Source: an uncultured Actinomycetes bacterium
GTDB taxonomy: Bacteria > Actinomycetota > Thermoleophilia > Solirubrobacterales > Solirubrobacteraceae
Direction of reading: 5' to 3'
NCBI GenBank assembly: GCA_963729125.1
Contig: CAVSML010000004.1
Location: 13,287 to 77,286, forward strand
DNA: 64,000 nt
Part shown: piece by piece, positions 10,437 to 64,000 of the stretch
Layout of the letters: each line of letters opens with the position of its first letter
Numbering within the stretch: the stretch's first letter is position 1
Made by a program: the position numbers and the translations under genes
Notes under the pieces: model-generated
Told to the model about the DNA's origin: nothing
The model's database searches: none
Seen by the model: the letters and a program-made list of their open reading frames with translations, nothing else

Positions 10437-10510
10437 CGGGATGTAGCTCAGCTTGGTAGAGCACCGCGTTTGGGACGCGGGGGTCGTCGGTTCGAATCCG
10501 GCCATCCCGA
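10437..10510 (+). tRNA. tRNA-Pro (anticodon TGG)
   Basis: Manual cloverleaf: acceptor CGGGATG/CATCCCG, D arm GCTC-AGCTTGGTA-GAGC, anticodon arm CCGCG-TTTGGGA-CGCGG, T arm GTCGG-TTCGAAT-CCGGC, discriminator A. No encoded CCA. Confidence 0.9.
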
Positions 10511-10533
10511 CTGCCGGCCGTGGCGGCCGGCGT

Positions 10534-10606
10534 GCCCCGGTAGCTCAGTGGATAGAGCAGCGGACTTCTAATCCGCAGGTCGCTGGTTCGAATCCAGCCC
10601 GGGGTG
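10534..10606 (+). tRNA. tRNA-Arg (anticodon TCT)
   Basis: Manual cloverleaf: acceptor GCCCCGG/CCGGGGT (G1-U72 wobble), D arm GCTC-AGTGGATA-GAGC, anticodon arm GCGGA-CTTCTAA-TCCGC, T arm GCTGG-TTCGAAT-CCAGC. Confidence 0.85.
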
Positions 10607-29297: not shown

Positions 29298-29371
29298 GGT
29301 GGGCGTAGCTCAGCTGGTAGAGCTCCTGGTTGTGGTCCAGGCGGTCGCGGGTTCGAGTCCCGTCGCTCACC
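29298..29371 (+). tRNA. tRNA-His (anticodon GTG)
   Basis: Manual cloverleaf with an encoded G-1: acceptor GTGGGCG/CGCTCAC, anticodon arm CCTGG-TTGTGGT-CCAGG, T arm GCGGG-TTCGAGT-CCCGT, discriminator C. Confidence 0.9.
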
Positions 29372-51380: not shown

Positions 51381-53451
51381 TGGAACCCGTCTCCGAGCGC
51401 CGGCCCCCCATCACGCCGCAGCTGGCGCTGCGCGTCGCGGTCTTCGGCGCGGTCGCCTTCGCGCTGTTCGCGATCGTCTTCTTCCGCCTCTGGTACCTGC
51501 AGGTGCTGTCGGGCGAGCAGTACCTCGCGCAGGCCAACTCCAACCGCGTGCGCAGCCTGCCGGTCCCCGCGCCGCGCGGCAAGGTCGTCGATCGCGAGGG
51601 CAAGGTCATCGTGCAGAACAAGTTCGCTGCCGTGATCGAGATCGATCCGAGCTCGCTGCCCCAGGACGAGCGCGACCTGGCGGCCGACTGGGGCAAGCGG
51701 ATGGGCGAGCGCGCCGCCAGGCCCGACGGCCGCCGCGGCGAGCCGCCCGGATCCCGCCGATCCCGACGAACCAGCTGAAGGCGCGCTACGCGCGCCTGGC
51801 AGAGGTGCTGAACACGACCGCCACGGGGATCCACCGCCAGGTCGTGCGCTCGCTCGTGCTCGTGCCCTACTCGTCGGCGCGCGTGAAGACCGACGTCCCG
51901 CGCTCGGTGCTGGCCTACATCAGCGAGCGCCCCGAGGAGTTCGCGGGCGTCAACGTCGAGCAGACCTACCTGCGCGACTATCCGGAGGGCCCGCTCGCCG
52001 CCCAGGTGCTCGGCTACGTCGGCGAGATCAGCCCGGATGAGCTCAAGCAGAGCCGCTATCGCGGCGTCAAGCAGGGGACGATCATCGGCAAGGTCGGTCT
52101 CGAGCGCTCCTACGACAAGTACCTGCGCGGCCGCGACGGCATCCGGCGCGTGCAGGTCGACGCGAACGGGCGCCCGATCCCCAACGACCGCCTGCGCGAC
52201 AAGAAGCCCGTCGCCGGCCAGCGCGTGCGGCTGTCGCTGGACCTCGGCCTGCAGCGCGCGTCGCAGAACGCGCTCCGGGGCCCGCTGAACCCGGGCTCCA
52301 ATCCCGGCGCCGCCGTCGCGCTGGACCCGCGCACGGGCGAGGTGCTGGCGATGGCCTCGCACCCGACGTTCGACCCGACGCTGTTCACCAAGCCGCTGAC
52401 CGAAGCGCGCTACAAGGCGCTCGTCGGCGACGACGAGGAGGGCGCGGGGCCGATCTTCAACCGCGCGATCTCGGGCTCCTATCCGAGCGCCTCGACGTTT
52501 AAGCCGATCACGGCGCTGGCGGGGCTCCAGAAGGGCCTGGTGACGCCGGCGACGACGATCGTCAACGGCGGCTGCGTGCAGGTTGCCGAGGCCGAGCGCT
52601 GCAATGCCAAGGACCAGGCCTACGGTCCGGTCGACCTCGCCAGGGCGCTTGAGGTCTCCTCCGACGTCTACTTCTACAAGCTCGGCGTCTCGACGTTCTT
52701 CCGCGGCGGCTCGCTGATCCAGAAGTGGGCGCGCGCGCTGGGCCTCGACGAGCCGACGGGGATCGACCTGCCCGGCGAGTTCGCCGGCCTGATCCCCGAC
52801 AAGGCGTGGCGCGAGGAGATCAACGCGTTCGAGCTGAACTGCCGCAAGAAGGAGAAGATCTCGCCGCAGACCGACGTCTACCGCGCCGGCGCGCTGGGCT
52901 GCGGGCGCTCGGACCTGCGCGGCTACAGCGAGGGCGACAACGCCAGCCTCGCGACCGGCCAGGGCGACGTGCAGGTCACGCCGCTGCAGATGGCCGTCGC
53001 CTACGGAGCGCTCGCGAACGGCGGCAAGGTCGTCACGCCGCATCTCGGCCTCGAGATCGAGAGCCCGCGCGGCGAGCTCGTCCAGCGCATCGAGCGCGAC
53101 CCGTCGCGCAAGGTCTCGATCGACGAGGGCCACCTCGGCGCCGTGCGCGAGGGCCTGCGCCTGGCGGCCAGCACGTCCGACGGCACGTCGGGCGACGTCT
53201 TCGCCAACTGGAACCACGGCGCCTTCCCGCTCTATGGCAAGACCGGCACCGCCGAGCGCAAGCCCAAGCAGGACCAGTCCTGGTACGTAGCCTACGTACC
53301 CGATCCCAAGCGCCCGATCGTCGTCGCGGTGACCGTCGAGGAGGGCGGCTTCGGCGCCGCCGTCGCGGCGCCGATCGCCTGCCGGATACTCGCGCGCTGG
53401 TACAAGCAGGATGCGAGCACGTGCGTCGCGGGGACGTCGGCGGCCCGATGA
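51377..53451 (+). pseudogene. mrdA: penicillin-binding protein 2 (elongasome transpeptidase) with a single apparent 1-nt deletion near 51750
   Basis: The N-terminus MMEPVSERRPPITPQLALRVAVFGAVAFALFAIVFFRLWYLQV...GEPPG is in ORF 50960..51778. IPPIPTNQLKARYARLAEVLNTT and the rest are in the frame of ORF 51805..53451. Transpeptidase motifs STFK (PSASTFKPITA) and KTGTA are present. The ATGA overlaps the mreD stop. Confidence 0.9.
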
Positions 53452-54599
53452 GCGAGCCCTCCTCCTCGCGTCTGGCGGGCCTGCGCCTGCCGTTCGACCC
53501 GCTGCTGGCGCTGGCCGCGATCGGGCTGATGGCCGTCGCGATCTTCTCGCTCGACGCGGCGGCGGGGCCCGACGAGGCCGGCAACGTCGCCGGCCGCCAG
53601 ACGGCGTTCTTCGCCATCGGGACGGTCCTCGCGATCGTTATCAGCCGGATGGACTACTCGCGCCTGCGCGAGCTGAAGTACGGCGTGTACGGCCTGATGA
53701 TGGCCGGCATCCTGCTCGTCGCGGCGTTCGGCGGCGTCACGCGCGGCTCGCGGCGCGCGCTGCAGCTGCCGTTCTTCGAGATCCAGGCGTCCGAGCTGGG
53801 CAAGGTGCTGCTGATCGTGGCGCTGGCGGCGTTCGCCGTCGATCGCGCGCGCGGCCTCGGCGAGCGCGACACGACCGCGCGCCTCGTGCTCGTCGCGATG
53901 GTGCCCGCGATCCTCGTCATGGCCGCCGACCTCGGCACCGGCCTCGTCTACATCGTGATCCTGCTCGCCGTGCTGTTCGTCGCGGGCGTCAGCTGGCGGC
54001 ACTTCGCCGGCCTGATCGCGCTCGGCGCGGTCTCGATCACGCTCGTGCTGCTGGCCGCGCCGGCGCTCGGCGTCACCGTCCTCACGCGCGAGCAGAGCGA
54101 GCGCCTGACGTCGTTCCTGCATCCCAGCGAGGTCGCCGGCGACGCGGGCTACCAGCAGCACCAGTCCCTGATCGCGATCGGCGCGGGCGGCAAGACCGGC
54201 CGCGGCGTGCGCGCGACGCAGGGCCCACTGGACTTCCTCCCCGAGCAGCGCACCGACTTTCGCTTCGCGGACATCGCGGAACGATGGGGCTTCGCCGGCG
54301 CCGGTCTCGTCCTGTCGCTCTACGCGCTGCTGATCTGGCGCGGTCTTCGAGTTCTTACCGTGGCCAAGAACCTCTACGGCGCGCTGATTGCCGGCGGCAT
54401 CGTGGCCATGTTCCTGTTTCAGGTCTTCATCAACGTCGGCATGAACGTCGGAATCATGCCCATCACCGGCATCCCGCTGCCGCTGCTCTCGTATGGCGGC
54501 AGCTCGGTGATCGCCACCCTCTTGGCCATCGGCCTCCTGCAGTCGATCTACGCGCAAGGGCGCGTTGCGGCTGCCACCAAGGGCCGGGGCCGCTTCTAA
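53448..54599 (+). CDS. rodA: rod shape-determining SEDS glycosyltransferase RodA
   Basis: The ATG at 53448 overlaps the pbp2 stop (ATGA). The FtsW/RodA signature ...EQRTDFRFADIAERWGF...GIMPITGIPLPLLSYGGSS is present. Confidence 0.9.
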   Translation: MSEPSSSRLAGLRLPFDPLLALAAIGLMAVAIFSLDAAAGPDEAGNVAGRQTAFFAIGTVLAIVISRMDYSRLRELKYGVYGLMMAGILLVAAFGGVTRGSRRALQLPFFEIQASELGKVLLIVALAAFAVDRARGLGERDTTARLVLVAMVPAILVMAADLGTGLVYIVILLAVLFVAGVSWRHFAGLIALGAVSITLVLLAAPALGVTVLTREQSERLTSFLHPSEVAGDAGYQQHQSLIAIGAGGKTGRGVRATQGPLDFLPEQRTDFRFADIAERWGFAGAGLVLSLYALLIWRGLRVLTVAKNLYGALIAGGIVAMFLFQVFINVGMNVGIMPITGIPLPLLSYGGSSVIATLLAIGLLQSIYAQGRVAAATKGRGRF

Positions 54600-54619
54600 G
54601 AACAAAGGATCGTCCACTC

Positions 54620-56566
54620 ATGAAGAAGCAACTGCTGGTCAGCGTCGATCGCGGGGAGACCCGCGTCGCGCTGCTGGAGGCGACGGGGACACCCGGCGCC
54701 GTCACGAAGACCGCCGCGTCGGCCCGCGCGGCGAAGAAGGACCCGGCCCCGGGCTACCGCGTCGCCGAGCTGTACTTCGAGCGCCGCGGCAATCGCTCGA
54801 TCGTCGGCAACATCTACAAGGGCAAGGTCGACAACGTGCTCGCCGGCCTGGAGGCCGCGTTCGTCGACATCGGCCTCGACAAGAACGGCTTCCTGCACGT
54901 CGACGAGATCGTCGTGCCGGGCGTCAACGTCGGCCGCCGCGGCCGTGGCAAGGAGGGCGGCTCGAAGATCACCGAGCTGATCAAGCCCGGCCAGGAGATC
55001 ATCGTCCAGGTCGTCAAGGACCCGCTGAAGAGCAAGGGCGCGCGGCTGTCGATGGAGGTCACGATCGCGGGGCGCTACATGGTCTACGCGCCGACCGGCG
55101 AGGGCATCGGCGTCTCGCGCCGCCTCGACGACAAGGAGCGCGAGCGCCTGCGCCGCGAGACCAAGGGCCTGGACCTGCGCGGCGGCGGCGCGATCATCCG
55201 AACGGCCGCCCACGGCGCCGATCGCGAGCACTTCGAGCGCGAGCTGCAGTACCTCTTCAAGCTGCACGAGGTGCTCGACAAGCGCGTCGCCGAGACGCCC
55301 GCGCCGGGCCTGGTCTTCCAGGAGGCCGACCTGTCGGTGCGCGTCGTGCGCGACATCTTCTCCGAGCACTTCGAGCGCGCGATCGTCGACGATCCCCACC
55401 AGCACCAGCGGCTGATCTCGTTCTTCACGCGCACGGCACCCGAGCTCGTCGACCGCGTCGAGCTCTACGACGACAAGCAGCCGCTGTTCGCCGCCTACGG
55501 CGTCGACAAGGTCATCGACGGGCTGATGACGCGCCGCGTCGACCTGCCCTCCGGCGGCTATCTGATCATCGACTACGCCGAGGCGCTGACGGTCATCGAC
55601 GTCAACTCCGGCTCGTTCATCGGGCGCGGCAAGGGAGCGCGCCTGGAGGACACGATCACGACGACGAACCTCGAGGCCGCCGAGGAGGTCGTCAACCAGC
55701 TGCGCCTGCGCGACATCGGCGGGATCATCGTCATCGACTTCATCGACATGGCCCGCGCGCGCAACCGCGACGCCGTCCTCAAGACGCTGCGAAAGACGCT
55801 CGACGAGGACCGCACGAAGACCTTCACGGCCGAGATCTCCAAGCTCGGCCTCGTCGAGATGACGCGCCAGAACGTCACCGAGGGCGTGCGCGAGATCATC
55901 TCGCGGCCGTGCCCGACGTGCAACGGCGACGGCGTCATCAAGTCCGAGGAGACGATCGCGATCGAGTTCGAGCGCCGCCTGCGCGTCGTCGCCAAGAAGG
56001 CGCCCAAGAAGCACGAGGCGTTCCTCGTGCAGATGAACCCGCGCGTCAGCGCGCAGTTCACGGGCAACGGCAAGCGCGTGCTGCACACGCTCGAGGAGAC
56101 GACGGGCCGGCGCTTTCACTTCACCGGCTCCGAGGGCCTGCGCCTGGACCACTTCGACATCGTCATGGAGGGCTCGCGCGAGGAGGTCCAGGAGCGCGCC
56201 GTGCCCTTCCGCGACGGCGACGAGGTGCTCGTGCACATCGTCGAGCCGCACATGTACGACGTCAACGACGCCGTCGCCAAGATCGACGGCTACATCATCT
56301 CCGTCAGCGGCGGCGGGCGCTTCGTCGGCACGAAGAAGCTCGTGCGCATCGAGAACCCGGGGCGCACGTCCGCGACCGGGATCATGCTCGACGCCGACGA
56401 CCCGCTGCAGGAGGCGCCCGAGGCGCCGGAGGACCCTTCGGAGAGCGATGACGTAGAATCCACGCCTCCCCGTCGCCGTGGCCGCAGAGGTGGGCGCCGC
56501 CGGAAGGTCGCGGCCGAGTCGGGCGCGGCGGGCGAATCATCCTCCGCATCACCGTCTGAGAGCTGA
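54620..56566 (+). CDS. rne: ribonuclease E/G family endoribonuclease
   Basis: ATG at 54620. S1 region [23 protein letters not shown]. Catalytic core TVIDVNSG...[11 protein letters not shown]. Zn-link CPTCNGDG. C-terminal beta-rich segment and an acidic/Arg-rich tail. Confidence 0.9.
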
Positions 56567-56574
56567 GACACACC

Positions 56575-56943
56575 ATGGCCTATGCAATCGTCAAGACCGG
56601 CGGCAAGCAGTACCGCGTCGAGCAGGGGCAGACCCTGCTCGTCGAGCGCCTGCCCGAAGAGGCCGGCGCGACCGTCGCGCTGACACCGCTGCTGTTTCGC
56701 TCCGGCGAGACCGTCTTCGACGCCGACGGGCTCGCCAAGGTCTCCGTGACGGCGAAGATCCTCGCCCACGAGCGCGGCGAGAAGATCCGCGTCTTCAAGT
56801 TCAAGCCCAAGCGCGGCTACAAGCGCACCACCGGCCACCGGCAGGAGCTGACCCGGCTCGAGATCACCGAGGTCTCTGGCGACGGACGGAGCCAGTCCAA
56901 ATCAGAGCGCGGGGCCGGACGCCCCGCGGAGGTGACCTCCTAA
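56575..56943 (+). CDS. rplU: 50S ribosomal protein L21 (with ~20-aa C-terminal extension)
   Basis: [26 protein letters not shown]...[14 protein letters not shown]. Confidence 0.95.
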
Positions 56944-57206
56944 TGGCACACAAGAAGGGGCTCGGCTCCTCACGCAACGGCCGCGACTCGAACGCCCAAC
57001 GCCTGGGCGTCAAGACGTTCGCCGGCGAGACCGTCTCCGGCGGCGAGATCATCGTCCGCCAGCGCGGCACGGTCTTTCGCCCGGGCGAGGGCGTCGGCAT
57101 CGGCAAGGACGACACGCTGTACGTCATCGCGCCGGGAACGCTGGTCTTCGGGACCAAGCGCGGCAAGCGGATCGTCTCCGTCGCCCCGCACGCCGACGCC
57201 GGGTAG
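56943..57206 (+). CDS. rpmA: 50S ribosomal protein L27
   Basis: [43 protein letters not shown]. The start overlaps the rplU stop (TAATG). Confidence 0.95.
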
Positions 57207-58150
57207 GTGACATCGTCCTAACGCGTTTCGCGCGCCTGCCGGACGGCAGGCGACTCGCGTACCTCGCCACCGGGCCGCAGCACGGCCCGCTGGTGATCTA
57301 CCTGCACGGTGCGGTCGGCACCCCGCAGCGCGTGTGCTCGGAGCTGCAGGCGGCGATCGACGACCTCGGGTTGCACTACGTGATGGTCAGCCGCCCGGGC
57401 TTCGGCGAGTCCGATCCGCAGCCGGGGCGCACGCTGCTGAGCTTCGCCGACGACATCGCCGCGCTCGCCGACCACCTCGGCCACGAGCGCTTCGCGGTCG
57501 CCGGCGTGTCGGCCGGCGGCCCCTACGCGCTGGCCTGCGCGCACGCGCTGCCCGAGCGCGTCGCCGCGGCGGCCGTGATCAGCTCGATGTCGCCCGGCTG
57601 CCCGCCGGACCTCGCGGCGGGCATCTCGCCGCTGCTGCGCGTCGGGCTGCGCACGCTGCGCCGGCTGCCGCGCGCCTGCGGCTGGGCCGGCGACGGCCTG
57701 ATGATGATCGCGCGCCGCAACCACGGGCTCGTCGCGCGCACGATGATGCTGTTCGCCTCGCCCGCCGACCGGCGCCTGCTGCGCGATCCCGAGTCGCGCC
57801 AGCTCGCCGTCGCGAGCTTCCTCGCCGCAGCCGGCGGCGGCGTCAGCCGGATGATCGGCGACTACCTGCTGTGCGCGGGGCGCTGGGGCTTCGAGCCGCG
57901 CGACGTGCGCGGGCACGTGCACCTGTGGCACGGCATGCAGGACGCGTTCGTCCCGGTCGGGCAGGCGCTGCAGATGGCGGCGGCGCTGCCGCACGTGCAG
58001 ACCGCGCTGGATCCCGACGAGGCGCACTTCTTCTACCGCCGGCGCCTGCGCGAGATCCTCGCCGAGCTCGTCGCGGCGGTCGAGCTGTCCGAGCCCGCGC
58101 TCGACGACGTCGTTCAGCGGCTGCTCACGCCGCCGCGCGCGGTCGCGTAG
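57207..58150 (+). CDS. alpha/beta hydrolase (true start uncertain; possible 1-nt indel near 57215-57220)
   Basis: ORF 57293..58150 has the nucleophile elbow AGVSAGG. In-frame upstream residues TRFARLPDGRRLAYLATGPQHGPLV belong to the fold but lack a start codon. A GTG at 57207 lies one frame off. Confidence 0.7.
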
Positions 58151-58158
58151 GCGGCCTT

Positions 58159-58839
58159 TCAGCCCTCGAGCTCCTGCGGGCCGATCAGGCCGCTCTGCAG
58201 CGCGCGCTGGGCGAGCGCTGCGCGCTTCTGGTGCTGGGGCAGCTCGCCGAGCGAGAAGGCGTCGAACAGCGCGCGCATGTGCGTCTTGATCGTCTCGACG
58301 CCGAGCACGAGCTCGTCGGCGATCTGGCGGTTGGACGGCGGCACGGCGAACGAGCTGTCGGCGTAGGGGCGACACAGCGCGACGAGCACGCGCCGCTGGG
58401 CGTCGCTGACGACCGGTGCGGCGGTCTCCTGCGAGGTGGCGGTCTGCAGCGACTCGCGTCCGGTCGGGCTGCGAAAGACGATCGTCGTGCGGCCGACGGC
58501 GATGACGTCGCCGTTGCGCAGGCGCCGGCGGCCGTGGACGCGCTCGCCGTCGACGAATGAGCCGTTGTGCGAGCGGCCGTCGTCGACGAAGCTCCACTCG
58601 TCGCCGACGTGCTCGAGCGTGGCGTGCACGCGCGAGACCTCGCCGTCCCACGCCAGCGGGACGTCGCTCTCCGCGCTGCGCCCGATCGTCAGCCGCTCGC
58701 GCAGCGCCCCGAGGATCTGGATCTGCTGGGCCGCGTCGCCGTCGCGGTAGAGCAGGAACGGCACGCCCCGGCGCTCGACCTCCAGGCGCTCCTTGAGCTC
58801 GGCGGGCGTGGCGCGGTGCAGCGCGTGGGGGAGCTCCAT
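58159..58839 (-). CDS. FHA domain protein with C-terminal LuxR-like HTH
   Basis: ATG at 58839: MELPHALHRATPAELKERLE... FHA core LTIGRSAESDVPLAWDGEVSRVHATLEHVGDEWSFVDDGRSHNGSFVDGERV...GDVIAVGRT. C-terminal SNRQIADELVLGVETIKTHMRALF. Confidence 0.8.
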   Translation of the reverse strand: MELPHALHRATPAELKERLEVERRGVPFLLYRDGDAAQQIQILGALRERLTIGRSAESDVPLAWDGEVSRVHATLEHVGDEWSFVDDGRSHNGSFVDGERVHGRRRLRNGDVIAVGRTTIVFRSPTGRESLQTATSQETAAPVVSDAQRRVLVALCRPYADSSFAVPPSNRQIADELVLGVETIKTHMRALFDAFSLGELPQHQKRAALAQRALQSGLIGPQELEG

Positions 58840-58873
58840 GAAGGCCCACTGTAGGCGGGTGGGGCGGTCGCGC

Positions 58874-60400
58874 TCAAGCTGGCGGCGCCGGCGGCCGGAC
58901 TTCGTGCTTGGCGACGAACGCCAGCAGGTCGAGCATCGTGAAGTCGTCCCGCGGCTGCTCGATCCCGGGCTTCCATGTCGGCCACTGGCGCAGGTAGGAA
59001 TGCGGATCGGCTTCGAGCAGTCCGACCAGCACCTCCGCGACGATCCGGCCGCCGACGGGGCCGAGGTGCTCGCCGCCGGTCTCGCCGCCCCACTGCTCGC
59101 CCTCCTTCTCCGCCTCGCGCAGGACGTAGAACCACAGCGGCGTCGCACGCAGCAGCGCGTCGCGCGAGTCCTTGCTGATCACGTCAGGGGTGACGCCCTT
59201 GGGCAGCAGATCATCGGGGGGCAACCGCGCGACGCTCATCGCGTTGGCGACGTCCTGACCGGACGGCAGCCCGAGCGCGCGGCCGCGCTCCAGGTTCAGC
59301 AGCGCGAGCCTGCGCCCGAGCGGCGCCACCGCGTGCGGCAGGTGAAACAGCGCGTCCACCAGGGCCGCGTCGATCTTCTTGCTGGGATTCTGGCCGTCGC
59401 GCTCGTCCGTGAAGAAGAACCGGTCCCAATCGATCTCGAGCTCGAAGGTCAGCCGGCGAAAGCCGGTCAGGTCGGGCTGGCCGCCGCCGGATTCGCCCGG
59501 GAAGATCGTGGCGGCCGTGCCGGCTTTCATCTTGTAGCCCTCGCGCACCATGCTGTGCCCGAAGCGATACACCGCGCCGGAGAACTCCACCGGGATCGAC
59601 GGCTCCCCCTGCCAGCGAAAGATGCGCCGCTTGACCGTCGGAACCTCCTCGCCCCCGCCGTCACGGAGCACCGACTTCGCCATGTCGTCGCCGACCACCT
59701 TCGGCAGGAAGTCGTGGGCGACGATCCACTGGTAGTGCCAGCGCACGATCCGGCGCGCCTCCTCGAACAGCTGGTCGGTCAGCCCGCGCTTGGCGCTGCC
59801 CTGCCACTCGGACTCGCCGGCGAGCCAGCGGACGACCGCGTTGTGAAAGCGGATGAAGAGCAGGTGAAGCTGGCTGACGATCAGGTTCTCGTCGTTGCGC
59901 GCGTCACCGACGAGCGCGCGGCCCGGCACATTTCGCGGCAGGTCCATCGTCGCCAGGCCGGCCTTGCCGGGGCAATCGACGAGCAGGCTCGCCCCGGGGC
60001 GATCGGCGTCGTCCCAGTCATACAGAAAAGGCTGATCGCGCGGACCGGAGCCGTACAGCGAGTCGAGATCGAGGCGCGGCGTTCGAAAGTTCACGAGCGC
60101 GCGCGGATCGTTGTCGCGTTGCAGCTTGGACGTCGGGTCGAACGTGATGTCGTGGTCGATGAACTGACCGAGGTACGTGTAGCCCGCGGGGATGTGGCGG
60201 TTGTCGCCGGACGGCGCGAGCAAGTCGGGCGTGCCGAGGAAGTCGGCGAGCTCCTCGACGGCAAGCGAACCGGGATCGCGGGCGGGCAGGTAGGGGAACA
60301 TCCGCCCGAACCTGCCGCCGCGTGATCCCGGCAGCACGCGCTGTCCGCGCGGCTCGGCGACGCCGTGCCGTGCGGCGTCCGCCCTGCGCGACCGCGTCAC
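58874..60400 (-). CDS. peroxidase-cyclooxygenase superfamily (animal-type) heme peroxidase, no signal peptide
   Basis: Distal site GQFIDHDITFD, LDLDSLYG, GDARNDENLIVSQLHLLFIRFHN, proximal FRFGHSM. I prefer the GTG at 60400 because it overlaps the upstream gene stop (GTGA). The ORF table start is 60430. Confidence 0.85.
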   Translation of the reverse strand: MTRSRRADAARHGVAEPRGQRVLPGSRGGRFGRMFPYLPARDPGSLAVEELADFLGTPDLLAPSGDNRHIPAGYTYLGQFIDHDITFDPTSKLQRDNDPRALVNFRTPRLDLDSLYGSGPRDQPFLYDWDDADRPGASLLVDCPGKAGLATMDLPRNVPGRALVGDARNDENLIVSQLHLLFIRFHNAVVRWLAGESEWQGSAKRGLTDQLFEEARRIVRWHYQWIVAHDFLPKVVGDDMAKSVLRDGGGEEVPTVKRRIFRWQGEPSIPVEFSGAVYRFGHSMVREGYKMKAGTAATIFPGESGGGQPDLTGFRRLTFELEIDWDRFFFTDERDGQNPSKKIDAALVDALFHLPHAVAPLGRRLALLNLERGRALGLPSGQDVANAMSVARLPPDDLLPKGVTPDVISKDSRDALLRATPLWFYVLREAEKEGEQWGGETGGEHLGPVGGRIVAEVLVGLLEADPHSYLRQWPTWKPGIEQPRDDFTMLDLLAFVAKHEVRPPAPPA

Positions 60401-60732
60401 GCGGCCGTGATCTCGGCGTCGCCGCCCCACAGGACGTCGTAGGTCCCGCCGTCGTCTTCGTCGTACACCTTCGCCATGCCCATGACGATGATGTCCCCGG
60501 GCGTGTCGAACGGCGGCGAGACGTCCTCGAACACGACGTTCCAGCTCCCCGGGGTCAGCGGGAGCTCGGCGTGCGCGGACGCGAACGCGTCGCAGTTCGG
60601 TCGCGCGACCAGCACGACCAGCAGCTCCTTGACGTCGATCTCGGCGACGTCGTCGCCCGGAGCGTTGATGCCCTCGACGGACAGGTTGCCGTCGAGCAGC
60701 GTGATGCCCTTGAAGTTTCTGACGAATCCCAT
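60397..60732 (-). CDS. hypothetical 111-aa protein translationally coupled to the heme peroxidase
   Basis: The ATG at 60732 is preceded by GGAGG 6 nt upstream. The ORF could extend to the GTG at 60795. The protein begins MGFVRNFKGITLLDGNLSVEGINAPGDDVAEIDVKELLVVLVARPN... Composition is acidic and non-shadow-like. No family recognised. Confidence 0.6.
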   Translation of the reverse strand: MGFVRNFKGITLLDGNLSVEGINAPGDDVAEIDVKELLVVLVARPNCDAFASAHAELPLTPGSWNVVFEDVSPPFDTPGDIIVMGMAKVYDEDDGGTYDVLWGGDAEITAA

Positions 60733-60846
60733 GTCCTGCCTCCAGGCAAGGTTGTTGGCGAACGCGATGACGACGGCGATGGCCCGTTGCGGCACACTAT
60801 CCGCGGTCCTGACGAGCTTGGGAATACCTCGCAGGGGTGAGCGCTC

Positions 60847-63800
60847 TCACCCCTGGGGCTCGTCGAGCAGCGCTCTCGCGCGCGCCGCGGCGACGGCGTT
60901 GCCCTTCATGTCATAGAGGGCGATCGCCGTGTGCAGCGCACGTTCGGCCTCGGCCGCGCGCGACCCCGACACGAGCACCTCGGAGAGGTCGAGCATCGCG
61001 TCGCCGCGATAGGACAGCATGTCGGTCGGTTCGACGAGCGCGACTCCCTCGCGCGCGAGCGTCTCGGCCTCGGCGCAGCGGCCGCCGGCGGCGAGGATCT
61101 TCGCCTGCACCCCGCGCCACATGACCTGCGTCACGGTGTCGTCGCTCGCTGCGCCGTCGGCGGCCCGCCGGCACAGCTCGCCGGCTTCGTCGAACTCGCC
61201 TTGGGCGTACAGCGCCTGAGCCAGCATCGCGTTCGTCGTCGCCAGCATCCGTCCGTCGCTGAGCTGCGCAAGCTGCTCGGCGCCCGCCCGCAGCAACGCC
61301 TCGGCGAGCCCGGGCTGCCCGGCGAGCAGGCGCACGAACGCCTCGTGGTGTGAGAGGTTCGCCTCGACGTGGCCGAGCTCGTGGCGGACGGCGTTGGCGT
61401 CGCGCAGGAACCGCTCCGCCGACTCGAACTCGCCCTTCATCGCGTACAGCGACGCGAGCGGGTTGACCATCCAGATCACCGCGACCGGGCTGGCGCCGAC
61501 GAGCTGGCGCAGCCCCTCGCAGCGGCGGATCGCGGCGTCGACCGGCGTCGGGCCGAGCATCGCCGCGGTCGCGCGCCAGCCGAGGACGTCGAACAGCTCG
61601 CGCTCGGCGCCGGCCTGGCGGGCGCAGTCCGCGGCGGCCGCCCAGGCATCGTCAGCGACGCCGATGTGGCCCACGGTCCAGGCGAGCTGGGCGCGCAGCG
61701 ACCACACGCGGCACTTGCCGTACTCGTCGCCGTCGCGCTCGAACACCGGCATCGCGGCGTCCGCCACGCGCCGGCCGTCCTCCGCGACGACGCTCGTCGC
61801 CGACTCCAGGCGCACGAACTCGCGCTCGACGAGCGCGCGCGCCTGCATCAGCGCGTCCTCGGCCCGCTCGACCGCCTCGTCGAGCACGCGGGTGGCCTCG
61901 GTCATCCGCCCCGCCTCGTAGAGCGAGGAGCCGAGCGCCGACAGCAGCGCGCCGCGCGGCGCGTCCGCCGGCTCGCTGAGCGCGATCGCTCGTTCGAGCA
62001 GCGCGCTCGCCGCCGCGGGGTCCACCCGCGCCAGCGCGGCGGTCGACGCTGCCCGGAGGTGGCTGACCGCGCGCGCCGCGAGCAGGCGCTCACGCTCGCC
62101 CGAGCGGCCGAGCTCGGCTCGCAGCAGGCAGGCCTGCTCGAAGTGATAGCCGAGGATCTCGTCAGGCGCGCTTCGCTGCGCGAGCCACTCGCCGGTGCCG
62201 ACGTGCAGCTCGGCGCGCAGCGCCTTGGGGACGCCGGCGTAGGCCGCGTCGCGGATCAGGGCGTGCGTGAAGCGATACGCCTCCTCGCCCGCGAACTCGG
62301 CCTGGTCTGACTCGACCAGCTCCTTGCGCGCGAGCTCGGCGAGACCCGTGGCCAGGCCGTCGCGCTCGCGCTGTGGCAGTCCGGCGGCGAGCGCGCCGGC
62401 ATGAAAGGTGCGGCCTTCGACGGAGGCGCGCTGCAGGAGCGCCCGCTCGGCGGCATCGAGGCGATCGATGCGCGCCGACAGCACCGCCTGGATGCTCGTC
62501 GGCAGCTCGCCGTCGCGGTCGCCGGCGTCGACCGCGACGAGCTGCTCGACGAACAGCGGGTTGCCCTCAGCGCGCTGCGCGATGCGGGGGGCGAGGTCCT
62601 TCGCCCCGAGACGCTCAGCGAGCTCGCGCGCCTGCTCGTCGTCGAGCGCCTCGAGGATCAGCACGGCGCGGTCGGGTTGCGTCGCGCCCCATTCCGGGCG
62701 CTCCTGGAGGAGCTCGGGGCGCGTCAGGCAGACGAGGAGGACCGGCGCGTCGCTCGTCAGCGCGACGACGTGGTCGAGCATGTCCAGCAGCGCCGGCTCG
62801 GCCCAGTGCACGTCCTCGACCGCGACGACGAGCGGGCGCTCGCTCGCGAGCCGCGCCACCAGCCTGCGCAGAGCCCAAGCCGTCTCGTCGGCCTGCGCGG
62901 GCTCGCCCGACAGCCCGATCGCCGACAGGATGCCGCGAATCGCCTGGTCGTCGCCGGCCAGCAGCTCTTCGATCCGGCGCCGCGGGTCGTCGCCGCCGAG
63001 CCCGCGGACGATGTCGGCGATCGCGCGGTACGTCGTGCCCTCGCCATAGGCCAGACAGCGGCCGGCGAGCACGGTGGCGCGGTCGCGGATCGCGGCCAGG
63101 AACTCGCCCGCCAGGCGCGACTTGCCGATGCCGGGGGGACCGGCCACGGTCACGAGCCGGCACGCGCGGTCGCGCCGCGCGGCGGCGAACGCCTCGTGCA
63201 GCACGGCGAGCTCGCGCTCGCGGCCGACGAACGCCGTCTGCGGCGTGCGCAGCAACGCCGGCTGATCGGCCTGCAGGGTCAGCAGGCTGCCCGTGTCGTC
63301 GATGCTCGCGTCGGCGGCGACCAGGCGCAGGATGCGCTCGCCGAGCAGGATCTCGCCCTGCGTCGCGCGCTCGGCGAGGCGGCCGGCGTCACTGATCGGC
63401 GAGCCGGTCGCGACCGGCTCGCCGCGCGGCCCGCGAGCCACGAAGACCTCGCCCATCTCGAGTCCCAGCCGCAGCTCGGCGGTCTCGGCGCGCAGCTCGA
63501 CGGCCGCCCGCGCCGCGCGCAGCGCGTCGTCGCCGTGGGACTCGTCGAGGCCGAACATGGCGACGAGCGCGTCGCCGAGGTAGTGCTCGACGCTGCCGCC
63601 GTGGCGCTCGAGGACCTCCGCGCAGCGGTCGAAGACGCCGTGCAGCGCCTCCGGGTCGTCGACGTCCGCGCGTGCGACGAGCACGGACACGAGCCGGCGC
63701 GCGTCCGGGCGGCGCGCGGTCGCCGGGGCCGGCGGTGGCGCGCGCATCTCCGCCAGCGCCGCCACGACGGCGCCGGCCGACGGCGGCCGCTCCTCGGGCC

Positions 63801-64000
63801 GCTTGGCGAGCAGCTCGAGGATCAGCCGCTCCAGCGCCGAGGGGACGGCCGGCTCGTGGCGAGACGGCGGCTCGGGCATCGCCGTCAGGTGCTGCATGAG
63901 CACGCCCCGCGGATCGTCGCCGGTGAACGGGGCGCTACCGGCGACGAGCTCGTAGAGCGTGATCCCGAGCGCGTACAGGTCGCTCGCCGCGCCCACGTCG
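60847..64000 (-). CDS. multidomain Ser/Thr kinase - cyclase-homology - STAND ATPase - TPR protein (5' end outside window)
   Basis: Kinase C-lobe SDLYALGITLYELVAGSAPFTGDDP. Cyclase-homology HGGSVEHYLGDALVAMFG...GSPISDAGRLAERATQGEILLGE. Walker A VAGPPGIGKS and Walker B PLVVAVEDVHWAE. A long helical repeat tail. No HTH at the C-terminus. Confidence 0.85.
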   Translation of the reverse strand, partial: DVGAASDLYALGITLYELVAGSAPFTGDDPRGVLMQHLTAMPEPPSRHEPAVPSALERLILELLAKRPEERPPSAGAVVAALAEMRAPPPAPATARRPDARRLVSVLVARADVDDPEALHGVFDRCAEVLERHGGSVEHYLGDALVAMFGLDESHGDDALRAARAAVELRAETAELRLGLEMGEVFVARGPRGEPVATGSPISDAGRLAERATQGEILLGERILRLVAADASIDDTGSLLTLQADQPALLRTPQTAFVGRERELAVLHEAFAAARRDRACRLVTVAGPPGIGKSRLAGEFLAAIRDRATVLAGRCLAYGEGTTYRAIADIVRGLGGDDPRRRIEELLAGDDQAIRGILSAIGLSGEPAQADETAWALRRLVARLASERPLVVAVEDVHWAEPALLDMLDHVVALTSDAPVLLVCLTRPELLQERPEWGATQPDRAVLILEALDDEQARELAERLGAKDLAPRIAQRAEGNPLFVEQLVAVDAGDRDGELPTSIQAVLSARIDRLDAAERALLQRASVEGRTFHAGALAAGLPQRERDGLATGLAELARKELVESDQAEFAGEEAYRFTHALIRDAAYAGVPKALRAELHVGTGEWLAQRSAPDEILGYHFEQACLLRAELGRSGERERLLAARAVSHLRAASTAALARVDPAAASALLERAIALSEPADAPRGALLSALGSSLYEAGRMTEATRVLDEAVERAEDALMQARALVEREFVRLESATSVVAEDGRRVADAAMPVFERDGDEYGKCRVWSLRAQLAWTVGHIGVADDAWAAAADCARQAGAERELFDVLGWRATAAMLGPTPVDAAIRRCEGLRQLVGASPVAVIWMVNPLASLYAMKGEFESAERFLRDANAVRHELGHVEANLSHHEAFVRLLAGQPGLAEALLRAGAEQLAQLSDGRMLATTNAMLAQALYAQGEFDEAGELCRRAADGAASDDTVTQVMWRGVQAKILAAGGRCAEAETLAREGVALVEPTDMLSYRGDAMLDLSEVLVSGSRAAEAERALHTAIALYDMKGNAVAAARARALLDEPQG

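Follow-up and report, generated by a model that had tools for sequence, protein, structure and literature searches.

SARP-LAL regulators, pairs of a Ser/Thr kinase with a forkhead-associated (FHA) transcription factor, and STAND kinases are all described systems, and they already contain the parts and the logic of the gene cluster analysed here. The cluster consists of four consecutive genes at the end of a 64,000-nucleotide (nt) stretch of contig CAVSML010000004.1, from an uncultured bacterium of the Solirubrobacteraceae with a genome of 72% G+C. The whole stretch is called the window, and the region analysed is 58159-64000. The genes encode a large STAND protein with a kinase domain, a small protein predicted to be a β-sandwich, a cytoplasmic heme peroxidase, and a protein with an FHA domain and a LuxR-like helix-turn-helix (HTH). 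We propose, with a probability of roughly 0.6, that this is the kinase-output version of a signalling operon conserved in Solirubrobacterales/Thermoleophilia, in which the kinase would relay to the FHA-HTH protein, and the latter would control the operon.

Closest described systems

The PimR class of SARP-LAL regulators from Streptomyces (PimR, PteR, SanG and PolR/PolY) has a cyclase-homology region, an AAA ATPase and a TPR tail, and no C-terminal LuxR HTH. The same is true of the STAND protein of the window. PimR was footprinted on a site of three copies of CGGCAAG with 4-bp spacers, and activates the gene of the PAS-LuxR regulator PimM (PMC3367932). The window system likewise has a sensor-domain-LuxR partner, but its sensor domain is FHA and not PAS. 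It differs further in that the window protein and its orthologues have a Ser/Thr kinase in the place of the SARP domain (Trans_reg_C + BTAD). Because the kinase replaces the SARP domain, the STAND protein should be unable to bind DNA itself, and no DNA-binding domain was found by Pfam in the visible 1050 codons. Its gene neighbours encode a peroxidase and a small protein rather than an antibiotic pathway, and the hosts are Thermoleophilia rather than Streptomyces. Sibling proteins of the SARP type, described below, have the full architecture, together with heptamers that nearly match the PimR/SanG/PolR consensus CGGCAAG with its 4-bp spacers. The window system is most readily seen as derived from PimR-like SARP-LAL regulators, with a kinase as its output.

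In Mycobacterium tuberculosis, the soluble STAND Ser/Thr kinase PknK phosphorylates the neighbouring VirS and thereby controls the mymA monooxygenase operon (PMC4601284). The window resembles this system in having a soluble kinase with a C-terminal STAND region, a neighbouring transcription factor and an adjacent operon for an oxidative enzyme. It differs in that VirS, an AraC-type factor, lacks an FHA domain, the mymA enzyme is a flavin monooxygenase, the PknK system has no small β-sandwich partner, and no output-swapped siblings of PknK are known. The pairing of an FHA-bearing transcription factor with a Hanks-type kinase has its precedent in PknH-EmbR, where the FHA domain of the transcription factor is needed for its recognition and phosphorylation by the kinase (PMC4601284); in the window, the pairing is proposed from gene co-occurrence. 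EmbR has an N-terminal SARP winged helix-turn-helix with BTAD and a C-terminal FHA domain, whereas the window protein has an N-terminal FHA domain and a C-terminal LuxR-like HTH. PknH is a membrane receptor kinase, and the window kinase is a STAND protein.

The TOMM kinase/cyclase fusions of TIGR03903 have the same domain order as the window protein, namely kinase, cyclase homology and NTPase region, and TIGR03903 is its best NCBIfam match (E=1e-41). Membership was rejected, as the score of 142.9 bits is far under the cutoff of 705.75 and, unlike in the TOMM systems, there are no cyclodehydratase or TOMM precursor genes nearby. The genes near the STAND gene are those for the peroxidase, the FHA-HTH protein, a hydrolase and ribosomal proteins.

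The peroxidase resembles the short bacterial peroxicins (family 5) in having a single domain of about 500 residues with distal Gln/His/Arg and a proximal His, this placement being made by features and not by phylogeny. A review of the superfamily terms the physiological role of these enzymes completely unknown and, unlike the arrangement in the window, reports no link to a STAND regulator or a partner protein (PMC4420034). Searches of the literature gave no account of a link between a peroxidase and a STAND regulator, kinase or FHA protein. A first-pass annotation of this DNA, made from the sequence alone, was aware of no described system of this composition. No description of the composition was found here either, but the STAND core has a precedent, as its SARP-type siblings have the architecture of the SARP-LAL regulators PimR, SanG and PolR (PMC3367932).

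Gene organisation

Translation of the open reading frames (ORFs) gives four genes in succession, all on the minus strand. In the order of transcription they are:

60847-64000, minus strand: gene 1, STAND signalling protein of the kinase-output type (ORF, translation, Pfam AAA_16 at 90.3 bits, partial Pkinase)
60397-60732, minus strand: gene 2, small protein of 111 residues (ATG, with GGAGG at 60739-60743)
58874-60400, minus strand: gene 3, cytoplasmic heme peroxidase of 508 residues, peroxidase-cyclooxygenase superfamily (PF03098 at 91.6 bits)
58159-58839, minus strand: gene 4, FHA + LuxR-like HTH regulator of 226 residues (FHA at 52.6 bits)

Gene 1 has its stop codon at 60847-60849, and its reading frame leaves the end of the window. 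For gene 2, the start at ATG 60732 is supported by a GGAGG 6 nt upstream and by homologues that begin at the same Met. A 132-residue version starting at a GTG was rejected. The spacer between genes 1 and 2 is therefore 114 nt; a value of 51 nt applies only to the GTG version. The GTG of gene 3 at 60400 overlaps the TGA of gene 2 (GTGA), and gene 4 begins 34 nt past gene 3.

These results agree with the first-pass annotation as regards the four same-strand genes, the GTGA overlap of -4 nt and the 34-nt gap, but not its 51-nt spacer. It had also assigned to gene 1 a kinase, a STAND ATPase and a TPR-like tail with no DNA-binding domain, to gene 3 a heme peroxidase of 508 residues keeping all catalytic motifs, and to gene 4 an FHA domain, and had called gene 2 an orphan of no recognisable family with the remark that it might lack homologues or a coding signal. 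These domain assignments were borne out, with the details and limits given below; the cyclase-homology region that it placed in gene 1 is present too, but is degenerate and has no Pfam hit. Gene 2 indeed has no match in Pfam, NCBIfam or PADLOC, while positional homologues were found and it carries a coding signal, with a third-position G+C content (GC3) of 0.95 and a dN/dS of 0.46.

Conservation of the operon

A scan of genomes with the peroxidase identified 80 loci. Those with an upstream homologue of gene 1 always have an ORF of 100-150 residues between it and the peroxidase gene. A scan of metagenomes with an alignment of the STAND C-terminal tail added 61 loci. The order STAND, small protein, peroxidase is shared by about 55 loci, which belong to genomes of Solirubrobacterales/Thermoleophilia or to metagenomes from soil. 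In most of them the stops and starts of the three genes overlap or abut. Such tight packing points to a single operon rather than a separately regulated pair of orphan and peroxidase, and indicates co-translation. In trees, the STAND and peroxidase genes co-diverge.

The four-gene unit with the kinase type of STAND protein is preserved against at least four different backgrounds of flanking genes: rpmA/rplU/rne with obg; a short-chain dehydrogenase; a divergent transglycosylase; and methyltransferases. As judged from gene order, the trio is the first conserved genomic context for this family of cytoplasmic heme peroxidases.

Output domains and their partners

Pfam analysis of full-length proteins shows that one homologous STAND core occurs with three N-terminal forms (loci are denoted by L numbers):

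Kinase form: Pkinase + AAA_16 + TPR, as in L004; this is the type found in the window
SARP form: Trans_reg_C + BTAD + Guanylate_cyc + AAA_16, as in L011 (SARP domain also in L119)
Cyclase form: Zn_ribbon + intact-looking Guanylate_cyc + AAA_16, as in L112, L110 and L144

The last 450 residues of the window protein are 46-55% identical to those of SARP-type L011, L013 and L022, and identity over the whole shared region is 47-51%.

The partner gene changes with the output. Among loci whose downstream sequence is visible, the peroxidase is followed by an FHA-HTH gene in all 12 of the kinase type (window, L004, L005, L007, L008, L010, L014, L016, L084, L086, L091 and L146), and in none of the 12 of the SARP type. 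Four loci whose STAND N-terminus is cut off have this gene as well, and it is absent from the cyclase-type loci L087 and L110. At L110:6421-7071, a gene for a regulator with cNMP_binding and HTH_Crp_2 domains overlaps the peroxidase stop, and at L144:1222-1872 a gene of the same composition abuts the cyclase-STAND gene. It is worth adding that in the SARP-type locus L011, whose cyclase domain looks intact, a fusion of a cNMP-binding and a thioredoxin-reductase-like domain comes directly after the peroxidase (L011:11460-13157).

In a tree, the STAND proteins mostly form two clades, a single one for the kinase type and a single one for the SARP type; outgroups of the SARP type have no peroxidase pair. 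The cyclase-type proteins nest inside the kinase clade, again without an FHA-HTH gene, and there have therefore been at least two joint switches of output and cognate reader or transcription factor. This matched swapping supports the relay from the kinase to the FHA-HTH protein that the first-pass annotation had put forward. That annotation had regarded the kinase and the FHA protein as a writer/reader pair, for which the counts of 12/12 against 0/12, and the persistence of the pair over at least four flanking contexts, are strong comparative support. It had also called for a survey of the neighbourhood, and allowed that the neighbourhood might not be conserved and that the orphan might be without homologues; neither is the case, because the linkage is conserved in about 55 loci and positional homologues exist.

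Sequences upstream of the operon and within it

The SARP-type loci share a promoter consisting of TTGGCG, a 17-nt spacer and TACGTT. Immediately upstream of these -35 and -10 elements are three heptamers, TGGCGAC-N4-CGGTAAC-N4-CGGCAAC, exemplified by L092 (TGGCGAC-gcgg-CGGTAAC-agcg-CGGCAAC). A two-heptamer pattern has 30 matches in 3.47 Mb of loci, of which 15 lie 79-97 nt before a STAND start codon, and these 15 fall in 8 SARP-type loci (7 distinct, as L102 and L103 are identical). Since the boxes closely match the PimR operator, and the architecture is shared, the SARP-type siblings are PimR-like SARP-LAL regulators, and they probably autoregulate their operon. No heptamer boxes are present in kinase-type promoters or in the cluster of the window, where the STAND promoter itself lies beyond the window end.

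A different element is found around the STAND stop codon of the window:

60832-60855, minus strand: near-perfect palindrome/hairpin of 24 nt, CAGGGGTGAG-AGCG-CTCACCCCTG, spanning the STAND stop (RNA fold, 10-bp stem)

Of 12 other spacer-bearing loci that were aligned, most keep its TCACCCC core behind the STAND stop codon; the palindrome occurs in loci with a spacer of approximately 100 nt before the small gene. The core motif recurs after the stop of the FHA gene in L016. Its occurrences outside the window are at L014:9499, L016:9520 and 12154, L089:1926, L091:4043, L113:1094 and L139:2048. The hairpin at 60832-60855 has no U-tract and no Rfam match. The palindrome could be an attenuator, a terminator or an inverted repeat that binds a protein.

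Proposed mechanism

On the basis of these comparisons, we suggest that the system has a constant core, made up of a STAND switch, the small β-sandwich protein and the cytoplasmic heme peroxidase, and that the N-terminus of the STAND protein provides an exchangeable output, whose activation should come about by proximity. The likely ancestral form would have a PimR-like SARP domain, which probably binds three heptamers, phased at 11 bp, in front of its own operon. In the window form, DNA binding would be delegated to the co-encoded FHA-LuxR-type protein, which would read or receive the phosphothreonine of the kinase. The third form would use an active-looking cyclase together with a Crp-type cNMP-binding regulator.

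Induced proximity is the mode of action of all three output domains, which makes a chain from ligand through oligomerisation, kinase and FHA-HTH protein to transcription the likely one. In this scheme, a ligand would act on the TPR tail and the STAND protein would undergo nucleotide-dependent oligomerisation. The kinase would then autophosphorylate and phosphorylate or recruit the FHA-HTH protein, where the linker ESLRTATSQ and T11 are candidate sites. The final step would be transcriptional control of the operon itself, and hence of the small protein and the peroxidase. By comparison with the SARP boxes, the likeliest target is the operon, whose cargo would be the small protein and peroxidase. 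We infer this role as cargo, like the target promoter in kinase-type loci and every biochemical step, from such analogies.

Weighing of the proposed mechanism and its alternatives

Several observations weigh against a kinase relay that controls the operon. The kinase and SARP clades largely track taxonomy (Solirubrobacterales and Thermoleophilales respectively), and because there were few switches between two clades of this kind, the counts of 12/12 and 0/12 are not independent. The pairing of cyclase and Crp-type regulator is seen in two loci only (L110 and L144), with no partner downstream in L087 and none in the 520 nt visible upstream in L112. A search of kinase-type promoters for an operator, using shared palindromes and gapped k-mers, found only a -10-like TACGCT; a palindrome GGTGAA-N4-TTCACC at the -35 position is confined to L014. 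The orthologous kinases could be pseudokinases, because the canonical β3 lysine is missing. The C-terminal HTH of the FHA-HTH protein (about nt 58225-58407) scores 17.4 bits with GerE (PF00196; E=0.0033), under the cutoff of 23.5. Finally, the FHA-HTH protein is conserved at about 76%, versus about 52% for the peroxidase and about 25% for the small protein, and given this higher conservation it could have a wider regulon.

Some of the same evidence can be read in the opposite direction, with the peroxidase and the small protein as the input. The heme enzyme would react with peroxide or another oxidant and modify or release the small protein as the ligand of the TPR tail, forming a heme-based oxidant-sensing front end of the STAND switch whose outputs act mainly elsewhere. 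Although we think this unlikely, it has in its favour that the pair is constant when the outputs vary (SARP, kinase with FHA-HTH, cyclase with Crp) and that, in most loci, its translation is coupled to that of the STAND gene. A wider regulon of this kind would also fit the much stronger conservation of the FHA-HTH protein, and the STAND link is specific to one clade of peroxidases, because other members of the family have no conserved neighbours. But in SARP-type loci the PimR-type boxes lie directly upstream of the operon, which makes the operon one target at the least. That the small protein touches the TPR tail is purely hypothetical, no fusion of the small domain to a peroxidase or to a STAND protein was found, and the small protein has no conserved Cys, His or Tyr; its invariant W64, F75, G85 and W102 may be core residues. 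If true, it would constitute a new class of peroxidase-driven signal transduction, with an output rewired at least twice, and would provide the first physiological role for the cytoplasmic short bacterial 'animal-type' peroxidases.

It is much less probable that the genes are adjacent without a shared function, with the FHA-HTH protein as a housekeeping regulator, or that they are a minimal secondary-metabolite cluster in which a tailoring peroxidase is under a SARP-LAL activator, as in polyene clusters. The high conservation of the FHA-HTH protein and its proximity to ribosomal protein genes in some genomes would fit the former; but its gene strictly follows the kinase type over at least four flanking contexts, and is missing wherever the kinase is missing. 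As for the latter, SARP-LAL regulators are classically pathway-specific activators (PMC3367932), but no biosynthetic genes are conserved around the trio, and the small protein is modelled as a folded β-sandwich rather than a precursor peptide.

The least probable reading is a conflict or defence system, with the STAND NTPase as the detector of an invader and the peroxidase as a toxic effector restrained by the fast-evolving small protein. In its favour are STAND and TPR regions with variable effector-like N-terminal domains, the rapid divergence of the small protein and matches of the kinase to the PD-T4-6 and Mad6 models in PADLOC. But those matches cover the generic kinase lobe only, and there are none for the small protein, peroxidase or FHA protein. 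The outputs are those of transcription regulators (SARP with its cognate boxes, FHA-HTH and Crp), and the cluster is chromosomal, is present in a single copy and adjoins rpmA/rplU/rne/obg in several genomes. Its STAND and peroxidase genes co-diverge, and peroxidases go unmentioned in a survey of STAND/NTPase conflict systems (PMC7159879).

The STAND protein

The visible part of gene 1 contains the following regions:

63745-64000, minus strand: kinase C-lobe, subdomains IX-XI only (Pkinase profile positions 175-253; PknB-type NCBIfam model, E=4.9e-22; alignment with the end of the orthologues' complete kinase domain)
63232-63708, minus strand: degenerate class III cyclase-homology remnant, residues ~98-256 (no Pfam hit; alignment to sibling Guanylate_cyc domains)
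62731-63231, minus strand: AAA_16 STAND NTPase module, residues 257-423 (Pfam E=2.6e-25; Walker A GPPGIGKS, Walker B VVAVED)
60850-62199, minus strand: C-terminal helical/TPR sensor tail, last 450 residues (sub-cutoff matches to TPR_12, TPR_MalT and TPR_10)

The last ~85 residues of the kinase are visible, its catalytic N-lobe being beyond the window end. Residues 3-73 match Pkinase (PF00069) with 25.4 bits, under the cutoff of 31.7 because the gene is truncated by the window end. The orthologue in L004 has a complete Pkinase domain (143.4 bits, profile positions 1-255). Full-length orthologues have 1246-1270 residues and 58-68% identity (L004, L005, L007, L008 and L014; also L010 and L016). 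Nine orthologues have the HRD Asp, the Asn, the DFG and the αC Glu (HRDVKPDN, GDFG, REAQ), in a part of the domain that, for the window gene, lies beyond the window end. In all nine, the position of the β3 lysine (VAIK) is Ala, as in VALAIV compared with VAVKVL of StkP (L004:5720-6589 and the other kinase-type orthologues), and all nine have an invariant Lys in the Gly-rich loop (GRGATKEVY). The latter is in the same register as in human WNK1 (GRGSFKTVY / VAWCEL). From these residues, the orthologous kinases are predicted to be either WNK-like active kinases or pseudokinases. The WNK-like relocation of the catalytic lysine is noteworthy in itself.

Guanylate_cyc (PF00211) gives no Pfam match for window residues ~95-270. 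The remnant is nevertheless homologous by alignment to the Guanylate_cyc domains of L011 (E=6.8e-16) and L112 (E=4.6e-22). In all kinase-type proteins the first metal-binding Asp motif (FADxxGST, metal/phosphate) has been deleted or replaced, and the Asn of the N-x-x-x-R transition-state motif has been replaced. This first Asp and three segments are lost; the alignment shows deletion of the FADxxGST motif, of an internal segment and of the C-terminal strand. SARP-type and cyclase-type siblings keep the cyclase motifs and pass the Guanylate_cyc profile. Judged by its residues, the cyclase-like domain of the window is a dead, degenerate remnant.

The AAA_16 module scores 90.3 bits against a cutoff of 32.6. 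In an alignment over 10 loci, the TPR tail is 46-62% identical. STAND genes are split by frameshifts at L020:6477-9653, L145:6296-9997 and L147:6779-10001, from either pseudogenisation or long-read assembly error.

The FHA-HTH regulator

The FHA domain (PF00498; about nt 58465-58698) scores 52.6 bits against a cutoff of 20.7. Its phosphothreonine-binding residues G53, R54, S69, R70, H72 and N92 are invariant in 13 orthologues, and its best structure-sequence matches are Rv1747, GarA and EmbR (2fez, E=5.4e-6). In a profile search against solved structures, the matches to the C-terminal region (residues 167-203) were nearly exclusively DNA-binding domains of the LuxR/NarL type: LiaR (4wsz, E=2.7e-4) and, as weaker, non-significant matches, VraR (5hev, 0.004) and VpsT (3kln, 0.05). 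The orthologues are 71-79% identical, are encoded directly after the peroxidase gene, and are restricted to kinase-type loci. The Thr-rich linker ESLRTATSQ and T11 are conserved as candidate phospho-acceptor sites.

The heme peroxidase

The peroxidase matches PF03098 with 91.6 bits (cutoff 25), and GQFIDHD (78-84), GDARNDEN (165-172) and YRFGHSM (278-284) align to the motifs of lactoperoxidase. Q79, D82, H83, D84, R168, E171 and H282 are invariant in 33 linked orthologues, and the enzyme is predicted from its residues to be catalytically intact. The public start, which gives 475 residues (M34), was rejected because it removes the conserved H12-G13 and G29-F35 (GRFGRMF; window 60299-60400). On this evidence, the GTG at 60400 overlapping the upstream stop is the better start.

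At least 8000 relatives of the enzyme were found. The linked peroxidases are a single clade in a tree of 104 family members, and a survey of the neighbours of 65 non-linked peroxidase loci found no recurrent partner family. Cyanobacterial relatives adjoin a methionine sulfoxide reductase B gene (L066, L068 and L074), which hints at an oxidative-stress link for peroxidases not associated with STAND proteins. In one locus (L042:8900-11500), a peroxidase of another clade is preceded by SARP-STAND gene fragments and two tandem small ORFs starting with MGTGGNFDE. Both give no more than weak scores with the small-protein profile; the locus may represent a second form of the module, of more distant relationship.

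The small protein

Direct searches for the small protein retrieved few sequences: three by word-indexed search and nine by exhaustive profile search, two of the latter being weak and partial matches (a 304-residue protein and an 897-residue repeat protein). The closest relative is 78% identical and has the same order of orphan, peroxidase and FHA genes, adjoining rpmA and rplU; against the closest orthologue, the dN/dS quoted above is similar to that of the peroxidase. The family becomes visible through the use of positional ORFs and an iterated profile. When a profile from close homologues was run against 6122 ORFs, the positional ORFs of 11 further loci were top-ranked, with one unrelated ORF intervening. 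After one iteration the positional ORFs had E values of at most 1e-18, versus at least 0.1 for all other ORFs. The profile matched 60 loci in all, and the family is found only between STAND and peroxidase genes. It is fast-evolving, the window protein being 18-31% identical to the positional small ORFs of the genome loci.

AlphaFold2 predicts a seven-strand β-sandwich (pLDDT 85.5, pTM 0.78), for which a fold search gave only generic Ig-like matches with TM scores of about 0.4-0.5. W64, F75, G85 and W102 are the only invariant residues in the family alignment. A Rosetta-stone search provided the negative result on fusions used above. A reading of the small protein as the precursor of a ribosomally synthesised and post-translationally modified peptide was rejected, as the model is of a folded domain.

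Genomic setting

Downstream of the cluster lies a convergent gene for an alpha/beta hydrolase (57293-58150), whose stop is 8 nt from that of the FHA gene; relatives have a CAP-domain gene in this place. The rne-rplU-rpmA block and obg are usually contiguous. In several genomes the cluster sits between them (window 53411-58150, L004, L005 and L014). The G+C content is 0.69-0.70 over the genes for the small protein and the peroxidase (59000-61000), lower than that of the STAND gene (0.75-0.77) and of the hydrolase region (0.75). A scan for promoters and terminators gave no promoter-like sites, and terminators at chance level only. Rfam gave no match within 58000-61200; its only gathering-level matches across the whole window are three tRNA genes (10437-10606 and 29299-29371).

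Significance

The interest here lies in the natural output swap, together with the first conserved, testable context for a peroxidase family with at least 8000 relatives. Bacterial Ser/Thr-kinase pathways are notoriously hard to wire from sequence, and a natural domain swap offers unusually direct comparative evidence on who signals to whom in such a pathway. The comparison also ties the SARP-LAL regulators, familiar from antibiotic production in Streptomyces, to what would be a non-antibiotic function in another actinobacterial class.

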